Below are positions 30,784 through 33,086 of a stretch of DNA of 45,522 nucleotides, in pieces. Source of the stretch: Alphaproteobacteria bacterium (GTDB lineage Bacteria; Pseudomonadota; Alphaproteobacteria; RF32; CAG-239); NCBI GenBank assembly GCA_017621635.1, contig JAGASU010000027.1:1-45522 (forward strand), given 5' to 3'. Position numbers and translations under genes: made by a program. Within the stretch, counting starts at the first letter, position 1. Every line of letters starts with the position of its first letter. A model generated the notes under the pieces. The model ran no database searches. It was not told the origin of the DNA and saw only the letters and a list, made by a program, of their open reading frames with translations.

Positions 30784-32108
30784 TTGTCTTCTTCCTTTTG
30801 TTGCTTTCGTGCTCGTTGTTTCTCGATTCTGAGTTTATCAAAATAATCGATTCGCTTCTTTATTTCTCTTTCAAATCCACGGTCAACCGGATTATAAAAC
30901 CGTCGCCGTCCCATCTCCTCGGGAAAATAATTTTGCCCCGAAAAACCGTCTTCCAAATCTTGGTCATAAATATAGCCGTTACTATACCCCAAATTCTTCA
31001 TCAACTTGGTTGGCGCATTCAAAATATGCTTCGGCGGCATAAGCGAGCCGGTCTGTCTTGCCGCTGTCATTGCCTTATCCATTGCTTTATAAACCGCCGC
31101 TGATTTTGGCGCCGTAGCCAAATAAGCCGTCAACTGCATAACTGCCAATTCTCCCTCCGGATGTCCGAGCCGCTCATATGTTTCCGCACACGCCATCGCC
31201 TGTACCACCGCATTAGGGTCTGCAAGCGACACATCTTCAATAGAAAACTGAATAAGCCGTCTTAAAATATACCGCGGATCTTCACCCGAAGTCAGCATTC
31301 TGGCCACCCAATAAAGCGCCGCGTCCACATCAGACCCGCGCAAAGACTTATGCACCGCCGAAATCAAATTATAATGTCCGTCCCGCCCTTTATCATACAC
31401 CGGCGCCCGCGAACGGATAATTTTCATTAATTTCTCTTTATCAAAAATCTCATCTGGCTTGGCATACGCCCAAACGCTCTCCGCCAAATTAAGAATATAG
31501 CGCCCGTCGCCGTCAGACACGTTTTTCATAAATTCCCTTGCTTCTTCATCAAGCGGCAGTTTTTGCCCTTCTTCTTTTTCTGCACGCTGCAGCAACTCCT
31601 CAAAATTTTCCGCCGTCAGCCGGTTTAACACAAACACCTGACATCTGGATAACAACGCCGCATTCAGCTCAAAAGACGGATTCTCTGTCGTCGCTCCCAC
31701 CAAAATAACCGTTCCGTCTTCAACATACGGCAAAAAGCCGTCTTGCTGGGACTTGTTAAACCGGTGTATTTCATCAACAAACAATAATGTTCCCTTGCCC
31801 TGCGTGGCTCGCCGGTCTTTTGCATACTGGAAAACCCGCTTTAAATCCGCCACACCCGAAAAGACAGCCGAAATCTGCTCAAAATAAAGATTCGTATGTT
31901 CGGCAATCAATCTGGCAATGGTCGTTTTTCCACACCCCGGAGGTCCCCATAAAATAAAAGAAGACACACGTCCGGTAACAAGCATTCTCCCCAAAGGAGA
32001 ATCTTCACCCAAAACCTGCTCCTGCCCGACCACATCTTCAAGCTTCTTCGGACGAAGCCTGTCTGCCAAAGGCCTTTTAATTTTATGCGAAAATAATGTA
32101 TCTTCCAT
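30780..32108 (-). CDS. rarA: Replication-associated recombination protein A (RarA/MgsA)
   Basis: PLADRLRP, GPPGCGKTT, DEIHRFNK, ATTENPSF and HKSLRGSD motifs. Confidence 0.97.
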   Translation of the reverse strand: MEDTLFSHKIKRPLADRLRPKKLEDVVGQEQVLGEDSPLGRMLVTGRVSSFILWGPPGCGKTTIARLIAEHTNLYFEQISAVFSGVADLKRVFQYAKDRRATQGKGTLLFVDEIHRFNKSQQDGFLPYVEDGTVILVGATTENPSFELNAALLSRCQVFVLNRLTAENFEELLQRAEKEEGQKLPLDEEAREFMKNVSDGDGRYILNLAESVWAYAKPDEIFDKEKLMKIIRSRAPVYDKGRDGHYNLISAVHKSLRGSDVDAALYWVARMLTSGEDPRYILRRLIQFSIEDVSLADPNAVVQAMACAETYERLGHPEGELAVMQLTAYLATAPKSAAVYKAMDKAMTAARQTGSLMPPKHILNAPTKLMKNLGYSNGYIYDQDLEDGFSGQNYFPEEMGRRRFYNPVDRGFEREIKKRIDYFDKLRIEKQRARKQQKEEDK

Positions 32109-32200
32109 CTTAACTCAAAAAATTATTTATCTAAACATACACCTCATAACACAAAATTTCAAAAGCTACAACTGGATTTTTTCAAAATAAGATAAAACGC

Positions 32201-32229
32201 TTTACTTTTTCAAAAAAATTAAATACGCT
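32201..32229 (+). promoter_or_regulatory. Sigma70-like promoter for the pilin leader
   Basis: TTTACT-17 nt-TACGCT. Confidence 0.5.
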
Positions 32230-32260
32230 TTATCTCGGATAAGACGATAGTCTGTCTGGG

Positions 32261-32422
32261 GTGTGGAAACCTCTTTATCGGCGTCTGTGTAAAGACGAGA
32301 CTTTTGCACGCTTTCTGGTCAGCGACTGGAAGGCGGCAAAATATGCTTATATTCAGTTAATATGTCGCACTATTCCGATAAATAGTTTCCAACTTCCAGT
32401 CGCCTTATCGGCGACTTTTTTT
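32261..32422 (+). ncRNA. C4/CI-like antisense RNA with upstream target boxes and overlapping terminator
   Basis: 11-bp stem 32322-32332/32393-32403 encloses two hairpins. Loop CCGATAAA is complementary to TTTATCGG (32274-32281) and GTTTCCA to TGGAAAC (32264-32270). Terminator GTCGCC-ttatc-GGCGAC-T7. Confidence 0.62.
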
Positions 32423-32450
32423 ATTGTACTGATAACAGGGAGTTTTTAAA

Positions 32451-33086
32451 ATGGAAAGAGAGGAATTTGGCCGTTCAATGATAGAAATGCTTGGAGTCCT
32501 TGCTATTGTCGGGATTTTATCTGTTGGTGCTATCTCAGGTTTTCAAAAAGCAATGTTTAAATATAAGCTGCAAAAGACAACCGAAGAATATAATATGTTC
32601 TTTCAAGATACTTTGAAATATCAAAAAGAACTCGTCAACTTGCGTAGAGGACAAAAACCAGGAGAAGGTAACCATTATCAGATAGGGCAACTATTAAATG
32701 ATATGGGGCTTGTACCTGCAACTTGGCAACAAACAGGTCAACTCATCTACGATAGATTAAACAACATAGTCAATCCAAAGATTCACCTTACTAATAATAA
32801 ATTAGATTTTGCCATATACGTAACAACTAATGACACCTCAATTTTTATGTGTGAGGCCATTTATCGAGATGTTTTTATGCAATTTAGTGACAATTTACTT
32901 TTTGTGCAAACTTATCGCAAAGATAGCGAAGGGAGCGCAAGCGGAACAAACACATATTACGGAAACCTCTATTGTAACGGCACAACAAAAAAATGCATTA
33001 AAGATATAACATTTACTGATGTCAAATCTGCTTGCAGCGTTTGTGAAGATAATGATGAAGTTTGTATTATTAAAATAGACTTCTAA
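32451..33086 (+). CDS. Type IV pilin/pseudopilin-like protein
   Basis: Short leader, G/RSMIEMLGVLAIVGILSVGAI (Glu+5 and hydrophobic helix) and Cys-rich C-terminus. Confidence 0.8.
   Translation: MEREEFGRSMIEMLGVLAIVGILSVGAISGFQKAMFKYKLQKTTEEYNMFFQDTLKYQKELVNLRRGQKPGEGNHYQIGQLLNDMGLVPATWQQTGQLIYDRLNNIVNPKIHLTNNKLDFAIYVTTNDTSIFMCEAIYRDVFMQFSDNLLFVQTYRKDSEGSASGTNTYYGNLYCNGTTKKCIKDITFTDVKSACSVCEDNDEVCIIKIDF

Follow-up and report, generated by a model that had tools for sequence, protein, structure and literature searches.

Layout of the locus

The DNA analyzed here (the window) is a stretch of 45,522 nucleotides from an alphaproteobacterial genome (contig JAGASU010000027.1), and the element in question is the leader in front of a gene for a pilin-like protein. 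All coordinates are positions in this stretch, on the forward strand. The genome of origin has a size of 1.64 Mb with 41% G+C and is rated 97.9% complete. Positions 32201 to 32450 probably comprise a promoter followed by a leader RNA of ~190 nt, the parts of which are collected in Table 1. Its 5′ half carries two short boxes and a strand called S1, and its 3′ half, the core, contains the partners of both boxes. The arrangement is that of the C4 RNA of phage P1 and the a1/b1 sites upstream of it, which are represented in Rfam by the families c4-a1b1 (RF03163) and C4 (RF01695) of clan CL00128, with gathering scores of 46.7 and 45 bits, respectively. C4 RNA is ~77 nt long, is processed by RNase P, and acts in trans.

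Table 1. Features of the leader and of the gene behind it
Feature	Position	Strand	Description
Promoter-like site	32201-32229	+	-35 TTTACT (32201-32206), 17-nt spacer, -10 TACGCT (32224-32229)
P0 hairpin, 5′ end of the leader	32237-32257	+	counterpart of the first c4-a1b1 hairpin
GGGG-UGUGGAAA-CCUC	32258-32273	+	possible local hairpin with 4-bp stem and 8-nt loop, presenting box 1
GTG open reading frame	32261-32449	+	62 aa, stops one base ahead of the 211-aa frame
Box 1 (a1-like), TGGAAAC	32264-32270	+	partner GTTTCCA (32385-32391), which is the 3′ junction of the core
Box 2 (b1-like), TTTATCGG	32274-32281	+	complement CCGATAAA at 32375-32382
P2 hairpin	32282-32297	+	CGUC...GACG
S1	32302-32320	+	putative decoy (anti-antiterminator) strand, makes the long hairpin P3 with S2
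Core	32322-32403	+	C4/sRNA-Xcc1-like, putative antiterminator fold with an outer stem around two hairpins
Outer stem of the core (11 bp)	32322-32332 / 32393-32403	+	GCGACTGGAAG with CTTCCAGTCGC
Hairpin 1 of the core	32333-32338 / 32363-32368	+	GCGGCA with UGUCGC
Hairpin 2 of the core	32369-32373 / 32382-32386	+	ACUAU with AUAGU, CCGATAA in the loop
Intrinsic terminator	32398-32423 (hairpin 32398-32416)	+	AGTCGCC/GGCGACT and T run, 7 pairs (5 G-C); left arm is the 3′ end of the core outer stem
Shine-Dalgarno-like site	32437-32442	+	AGGGAG
Pilin-like gene	32451-33086	+	211 aa, N-terminus GRSMIEMLGVLAIVG

Two conserved folds of one leader

The segment 32230-32430 has a minimum free energy (MFE) of -75.5 kcal/mol, compared with -47.0 ± 4.2 kcal/mol in 200 shuffled sequences, none of which is as good (z -6.75). 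Six paralogous leaders of the same genome fold alike and served to build a covariance model (R1). An alignment of 35 leaders from 30 genomes (A3) shows that the leader maintains two different sets of pairs.

The first set makes up the terminating fold, which consists of a closing helix, the first box helix (box helix a), the P2 hairpin (helix 2), P3 (helix 3), in which S1 pairs with a strand termed S2, and the terminator (helix 4). Taken together, 96.5% of the cells are paired and 19 of 40 pairs have changed on both sides, a result that is reached by none of 500 shuffles and is far from the 28-51% of slid controls. In the closing helix, the GGGGU of the 5′ segment pairs with ACUUC at 32392-32396 as an alternative to its local hairpin (alignment pairs 4-8/206-210, formed in 33 to 35 of the 35 leaders). 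The complementarity of box 1 to the core is covered by alignment pairs 10-16. Helix 2 is paired in 92.9% of cells and is missing from relatives of the G060 type; helix 3 has 17 pairs, of which 8 have changed on both sides, and is paired in 93.7% of cells. The terminator is paired in 100% of cells in the 35 leaders, with 4 of its 7 pairs changed on both sides.

The second box helix is too variable to align and was for this reason assessed sequence by sequence instead of by column. A complementarity of 7-9 bp is present in all 35 leaders, with a mean energy of -7.85 kcal/mol for cognate pairs versus -1.13 kcal/mol for non-cognate ones. The sequence-only reading, which was made from this DNA before any database search, had proposed that CCGATAAA and GTTTCCA are complementary to the two upstream boxes; the sequence confirms their coordinates, and loop and boxes covary in 35 of 35 leaders, those in front of further pilins with the motif GRSMIEML among them, as that reading had expected. 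The boxes and their partners are thus the two strands of one long helix within the same RNA molecule. The boxes diverge at 0.60 differences per site, as fast as free loops (0.42-0.64); the hairpin-2 stem ACUAU/AUAGU of the core is conserved (0.09 and 0.21 differences per site).

The second set of pairs makes up the antiterminator fold, in which S2 pairs with UGUCGC (32363-32368) and with CUUCCAGUC (32393-32401) instead of with S1. Its 15 pairs in outer stem and hairpin 1 are formed in 99.4% of cells, and 8 of the 15 have changed on both sides, which is matched by 0 of 500 shuffles. The 11-bp stem around two hairpins that had been picked out by eye lies exactly where it was placed. S1, S2, and the third strand change together, as is seen in columns 60, 107, and 174, where G-C turns into A-U 13 times and C-G into U-A 14 times. 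Stretches at the junctions and in hairpin 1 are conserved and unpaired (CCUCU, RUAG, AAAAUA, AAUAU, CACUAU). Across the 35 leaders, one position invariably has a G-U pair and such pairs are frequent elsewhere; the pairing therefore takes place in the RNA of the + strand.

In the folding model, the main stem and the terminator, which share an arm, are mutually exclusive, and both are conserved in the 35 leaders, as the sequence-only reading had held. The TTATCGG motif, which it had further pointed out in the terminator loop, is present there; its match to the boxes turns out to be coincidental, as it does not follow the boxes in paralogues. In the paralogue on contig C57, the terminator differs at one base of the 3′ arm and has the same TTATCGG loop, and the boxes are different.

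Energetics and proposed mechanism

The terminating fold is favored by a mean of 13.0 kcal/mol in the full leader and by 6.8 kcal/mol before the 3′ arm of the terminator has been made. In nested-structure calculations, on which all energy and blocking comparisons are based, the terminator is formed by the free RNA in 35 of 35 leaders. When the boxes are blocked in silico, the antiterminator becomes the MFE structure in 18 of 35 truncated leaders; when S1 is blocked together with the boxes, it does so in all 35 truncated and in 25 of 35 full leaders.

A G+C-rich hairpin with a U run thus precedes the gene, an alternative helix uses its 5′ arm, and both are conserved, which is the makeup of an attenuator. 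The leader has no demonstrable second target of the a2/b2 type: between the terminator and +100 in 28 distinct leaders, cognate boxes reach -9.80 kcal/mol versus -9.40 kcal/mol for non-cognate ones, so that no cognate-specific site is found. Translational control of the C4 kind, which had been suggested together with the two-box design, therefore has no basis at this leader. Because such a target is lacking, S1 has been added, and the terminator overlaps the outer stem, the element is read as a self-contained attenuator. The leader is probably an RNA of the C4/sRNA-Xcc1 kind that has been rebuilt into a Rho-independent transcription attenuator, off by default.

In the proposed mechanism, the 3′ half (32322-32403) would fold as an outer stem around two hairpins and thereby take up the left arm of the terminator. 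Since the core fold occupies this arm, the core would be the antiterminator. The boxes of the 5′ half would pair in cis with two sites of the core, the loop of hairpin 2 and the junction, and S1 would pair with the left strand of the outer stem; both pairings would dismantle the core and free the terminator. Transcription would then stop at ~32422, 28 nt ahead of the gene. As the terminating fold is the more stable one, the leader would be off by default, with its 5′ half acting as an anti-antiterminator. Whatever ties up the 5′ half would permit read-through and switch the gene on, and candidate signals are the core RNA acting in trans, a protein, or a small ligand. We infer that termination takes place in the cell, that the default state is off, and that the leader descends from a module of mobile elements.

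Several points weigh against this interpretation. The alignment was built to fit the terminating fold and made no use of the alternative one. Pseudoknots are not part of the folding model, and the outer stem might persist alongside the box helix, as it does when C4 is bound to its target; the exclusivity of the folds consequently depends on S1, the GGGGU/ACUUC pairs, and steric effects outside the computation. In 6 of 35 leaders, the two folds lie within ~1.6 kcal/mol as long as the terminator is incomplete. On the window, every Rfam model stays below its cut-off. An RNA run (0.05 share of words) gave 8 contig pieces with 85-99% likeness, which represent leaders and genes of relatives; contigs show no starts, ends, or levels. 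Two of the 8 pieces extend past the terminator region; none of the 8 is used as evidence.

Copies, distribution, and downstream genes

BLAST and R1 find six copies of the leader in the genome of the window at 129-177 bits (contigs C123, C57, C83, C126, C114, and C80), besides weaker relatives. The boxes of these six are all different. Boxes are not always unique within a genome, since two leaders of G015 share them and the strongest non-cognate pairs within genomes equal cognate ones. Among 61 genomes searched, R1 has matches in 41, with up to 10 per genome. These include 34 of the 35 other genomes of the genus, the one genome examined from another genus of the family, the one from a second family of the order, and genomes from 4 of 23 other families of the class. 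A 16-mer scan of genome contigs gave 80 loci, 20 of them with the motif and most others being chance matches in unrelated phyla. All 20 motif-bearing loci come from metagenome-assembled genomes of rumen, gut, and similar samples, the titles of which name Alphaproteobacteria, proteobacterium/Proteobacteria, “Azospirillum sp.,” or “Acetobacter sp.” In leaders of sequence types II and III, the pairing logic is preserved and the junction sequences are not.

One locus of the G060 genome (L193, G060:C24:17269-18418, minus strand) holds two complete promoter-leader-terminator units in tandem, 290 bases from start to start. The units have different boxes, no open reading frame lies behind either, and the next gene encodes glutamyl-tRNA synthetase. 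Each unit is followed by a conserved stretch of ~60 nt with CCAGAAGUU, which is complementary to the 3′ strand of the antiterminator. The two units look like stand-alone RNA genes.

The genes behind the 35 aligned leaders comprise 12 that encode pilin-like proteins with the motif GRSMIEML, 13 for proteins that have a signal peptide and repeats rich in tyrosine, and 10 for other products, among them lipoproteins, small membrane proteins, a hexapeptide transferase, and an N6_Mtase-like protein. Four of four scanned members of the tyrosine-rich-repeat group match OMP_b-brl/OmpA-like barrels. The leader, which had been supposed to gate pilin expression, is accordingly not restricted to pilins, as it also precedes the 13 barrel genes.

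The assignment of the window protein itself is marginal: it scores 11.9 bits with TIGR02532 (cut-off 16.3), other pilin models give E values of 0.03-0.06, below their cut-offs, and a Pfam search of the protein returns no family. The G-RSMIE-hydrophobic motif was recognized by eye. Contig C85 of the genome carries a gene for a prepilin peptidase. The pilin-like family has at least 20 genes (20-23 loci) in the 1.64 Mb, with the invariant N-terminus given in Table 1. The presumed cleavage-site glycine is followed by arginine, an unusual residue at this position of prepilins.

Among 20 pilin-like genes, 5 have a type I leader and 5 have leaders of other types with the same pairing logic. Most of the remaining ones carry a different device, a segment that resembles an invertible promoter. 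Ahead of four such paralogues (C108:5314-5446, C113:1799-1931, C120:3184-3316, and C90:4269-4401) lies a 101-bp segment flanked by imperfect 16-bp inverted repeats of the ATAAACCTTGGTTTAT / ATAAACCAACCTTTAT type. The C108 segment is inverted relative to that of C113 (alignment score 69 inverted versus -14 direct), and the flanks on the gene side are almost identical. By their sequence, these segments look like fimS-type invertible promoters, which would provide phase variation at the DNA level in the same gene family.

A strict -35/-10 pattern is found at the equivalent distance in 19 of 33 homologous loci, and a general promoter scan does not list the promoter-like site at 32201-32229. A hairpin of -5 kcal/mol or lower occupies the position of P0 in 28 of 33 loci (mean -6.9 versus -3.2 kcal/mol in shuffles), the sequences differing. 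A 27-base direct repeat (TTTTTCAAAATAAGATAAAACGCTTTA / TTTTTCAAAAAAATTAAATACGCTTTA) at 32178-32232, with copies 81% identical and 28 bases apart, overlaps the predicted -35 and -10 and may represent a promoter element that has been duplicated or a site where a protein binds.

Relationship to sRNA-Xcc1

The Rfam family that comes closest to the core is sRNA-Xcc1 (RF02221), which has been described as a trans-acting small RNA of mobile elements. The core of the window (32316-32412, 97 bases) matches it over the full model length with 33.6 bits (E 7.9e-5), short of the gathering score of 53; a scan of the surrounding 601 bases (32000-32600) missed this match. In a permissive Rfam scan of 19 divergent leader loci, sRNA-Xcc1 is the only family matched, in 13 of 19 and with sub-threshold scores of 27-41.6 bits. 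These matches always lie on the 3′ half, and the model structure is exactly the alternative (antiterminator) fold. The genome of the window contains six further sub-threshold sRNA-Xcc1 sites (24.6-37.2 bits), the folds of which show the leader architecture; R1 matches two of them. Across the class, sRNA-Xcc1 is found at E ≤ 0.001 in 22 of 121 genomes and over its cut-off in 5 of 121.

The gap between the two models is filled by intermediates. On the loci L199, L197, and L198, R1 scores 110.6, 46.8, and 38.1 bits and sRNA-Xcc1 scores 41.6, 38.6, and 40.6 bits, respectively, and the genome G051 holds both an R1 leader and cassettes with cut-off-passing sRNA-Xcc1 (55.8-57.9 bits). Judged by sequence, a chain of intermediates thus appears to link the window to bona fide sRNA-Xcc1 members.

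The G051 cassettes are arranged as three tandem units of 994 bp (L214, G051:C1:749239-752323), each with one cut-off-passing sRNA-Xcc1. They have a GAGG-box-CCUC hairpin with the shape of a 4-bp stem and 8-nt loop and a second box, which covary with the core between copies. A terminator-like hairpin stands before the core, and a b2-like site stands before an open reading frame of no known function.

Related settings have been reported elsewhere. In Xanthomonas integron cassettes, sRNA-Xcc1 lies upstream of and co-directional with symE (bioRxiv 10.1101/2025.06.18.660453), and a study of APSE phages places it likewise ahead of a gene for an ORF6N protein (PMC7313666). A genome table for Xylella lists it beside C4 and isrK (PMC12189769).

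The C4 model has no match at E ≤ 10 on 32000-32600 or on 32316-32412 and scores 68.8 bits on P1; its best hits in the genome of the window reach 19.7 and 19.3 bits, at two of the six sub-threshold sRNA-Xcc1 sites. On 32226-32300, no Rfam family, c4-a1b1 included, is matched at E ≤ 10; with c4-a1b1, P1 scores 51.0 bits. The Rfam search that had been proposed as a check of the phage-type reading therefore came back empty. The isrK model also stays below its threshold on the window.

Alternative explanations

Trans action is the strongest competitor, and it is unlikely on balance. Here, a core of ~80 nt would be cut out of the transcript, and its loop and junction (and S2) would pair with the boxes (and S1) of nascent transcripts from the same locus, which would set a locus-specific level of read-through. 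The architecture equals that of C4 and CI, which act in trans; the tandem units of G060 lack open reading frames; Hfq is encoded in the genome; and in silico tying-up of the 5′ half switches 35 of 35 leaders. The fast divergence of the boxes and the six different box pairs of the genome would fit as well. Against these stands the fact that the cis partner is always nearer, with one 5′ half and one core in each transcript. The cognate-specific downstream site that a second target would offer is missing (-9.8 versus -9.4 kcal/mol). The genome has 69 loose matches to the boxes of the window, exact ones being limited to the box pair and to its partner read on the opposite strand. The matches considered comprise those listed for the C123 and C57 leaders in full and part of those for C83 and C80. 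An earlier suggestion of action on paralogous pilin loci is not supported by these matches. With boxes shared in G015 and non-cognate pairs as strong as cognate ones, box uniqueness is only partial and therefore no argument for trans action.

An extension of trans action, which must be called improbable, is that each copy works as an RNA-only, locus-addressed epigenetic switch, in which a released core would capture the boxes and S1 of the next transcript from the same locus. The core of that transcript could then fold as antiterminator, more core RNA would be made, and a positive loop would be closed. If true, single genes for pilins, porins, and lipoproteins would have heritable on and off states, amounting to phase variation without DNA change. 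An RNA switch from a phage immunity module would then operate beside the DNA-inversion switches of other pilin paralogues.

A decision by a protein, either Hfq or a dedicated RNA-binding antiterminator that binds the 5′ half or the core, is quite doubtful. Hfq is present, a leader that is off by default needs a helper, and A-rich motifs (AAUAA/GAAUA) occur in hairpin 1. IsrK, which is related to the 5′ element, is an Hfq-binding RNA according to Rfam. No candidate gene was found, CsrA was not found in the genome, and no conserved neighboring regulator occurs at the loci inspected.

It is less probable still that the leader is a riboswitch in which a small molecule or ion at the multi-helix junction tips the balance between terminator and antiterminator. 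The platform is a classic one, the unpaired stretches at the junctions and in hairpin 1 are conserved, the folds are nearly balanced in some members, and the genes form a coherent set of envelope proteins. Yet no riboswitch family is found at gathering score or E ≤ 10, and the long helices (~20 bp and ~18 bp) strongly favor one fold without any ligand. The conserved loop motifs are common to sRNA-Xcc1, and types II and III retain the pairing logic and not the junction sequences. The usual signal of pili is c-di-GMP. A GGDEF domain was not found in the genome at its completeness of 97.9%, which makes c-di-GMP unlikely as the signal. A riboswitch was dropped as the leading interpretation once the likeness to sRNA-Xcc1 and C4 emerged and no GGDEF domain was found.

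Leader-peptide attenuation and a DNA inversion switch can both be set aside as highly implausible. The GTG frame exists as the sequence-only reading described it, but it is spurious, since it is stopped in 33 of 35 homologous leaders and its start codon is not conserved. A repeat finder recovers the same inverted repeats (I1, I2, I15, and I16), which flank ~93 bp, but G-U pairs, meaningless in DNA, are invariant or frequent, and the arms are hypervariable, unlike recombinase sites; inversion of 32282-32374 is rejected on these grounds. A cis helix unrelated to C4 was likewise rejected because the leader matches P1 piece for piece.

Significance

The published full text that was searched contains no description of such leaders, lists of unnamed candidate RNAs from gut metagenomes being covered in part. 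The table of Fremin and Bhatt 2021 (PMC8040213) has an unnamed candidate, HMP2_1648, with 70 sequences, mostly from “Azospirillum sp.” gut genomes and near autotransporter genes, and it may overlap with the present leaders.

The attenuator reading would mean that a phage-type plan has been recast as a compact terminator/antiterminator leader and has spread to many chromosomal genes for surface proteins. Its carriers are uncultured Alphaproteobacteria of gut and rumen, and the leader copies indicate how these bacteria may vary their surface. C4, CI, IsrK, and sRNA-Xcc1 are known from phages, integrons, and islands, where these small RNAs keep toxic or lytic genes in check. Two parts go beyond the phage plan, namely the decoy strand S1 and an intrinsic terminator that has the end of the outer stem as its left arm. 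The comparison places the sRNA-Xcc1 family, which is poorly understood, with the C4 kind and offers a testable role for the upstream a1/b1 sites, which are annotated in P1 only as “putative.” The natural and mostly different box pairs are possible parts for RNA-based gene control.

Comparison with known systems

The annotated P1 record has the order promoter, a1 (7 nt), b1 (8 nt), c4 (77 nt), a2, b2, and icd. In the Rfam alignments on P1, c4-a1b1 opens with a 7-bp hairpin. Directly after it comes a second hairpin, in which a 4-bp stem closes an 8-nt loop that holds a1, and b1 is next. C4 is an outer stem around two hairpins, with the complement of b1 in the loop of hairpin 2 and that of a1 in the next junction. 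The window has both the C4 core layout (RF01695) and the c4-a1b1 layout of hairpins and boxes (RF03163). With the immI region of P1 and P7, the leader thus shares the promoter, a 5′ hairpin of ~7 bp, the a1-type hairpin, and the 8-nt second box, in the same order and shapes. It also shares a core of 77-82 nt that lies 40-66 nt beyond the boxes, with the partners in the hairpin-2 loop and the 3′ junction. This likeness bears out the architectural part of the earlier comparison with P1 C4 and P4 CI. Unlike immI, the leader has no terminator-like hairpin between boxes and core, has added S1 and an intrinsic terminator that overlaps the outer stem, and is present in many copies before chromosomal genes for envelope proteins instead of before icd/ant.

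Phage P4 uses pairing in trans, on two sides. The pairing there, of an upstream element with a downstream core in one leader (CI, seqA/seqC), controls termination (PMC4825925). In Gifsy-1, the IsrK/STnc1160 transcript switches between two folds, structures A and B (PMC4825925). IsrK differs in that its output is the translation of orf45-anrP; the short RNA stops ahead of the core, at a terminator of its own, and acts in trans on its own long transcript (PMC4825925). Unlike P4 and IsrK, the window leader has a single terminator, which comes after the core. The isrK model gives 35.1 bits (cut-off 50) on P1 (L211, 23231-23312), in the a1b1 region with the terminator-like hairpin that precedes c4. 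This match agrees with the statement that IsrK is a structural homologue of P4 seqA (PMC4825925). In Rfam, isrK is filed outside the C4 clan, and IsrK is filed as an Hfq-binding RNA.

sRNA-Xcc1, the best-scoring family, shares with the leader the three-way junction, the AAUA...GAAUA motifs in hairpin 1, and a similar 3′ tail. The bona fide G051 cassettes differ in lacking S1 and a terminator overlapping the core, and they have the terminator-like hairpin before the core and the b2-like site, both of which are absent from the window leader. Although it fails the thresholds of the C4 and sRNA-Xcc1 modules and is without their downstream target, the leader probably works like them and descends from them.

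Terminator/antiterminator riboswitches and T-box leaders resemble the leader in being promoter-proximal, in having exclusive folds, and in possessing an upstream domain that decides between them. Unlike in these systems, the leader shows no match to any of their families and no recognizable features for binding a ligand or tRNA, and its deciding domain is the complement of the antiterminator domain.

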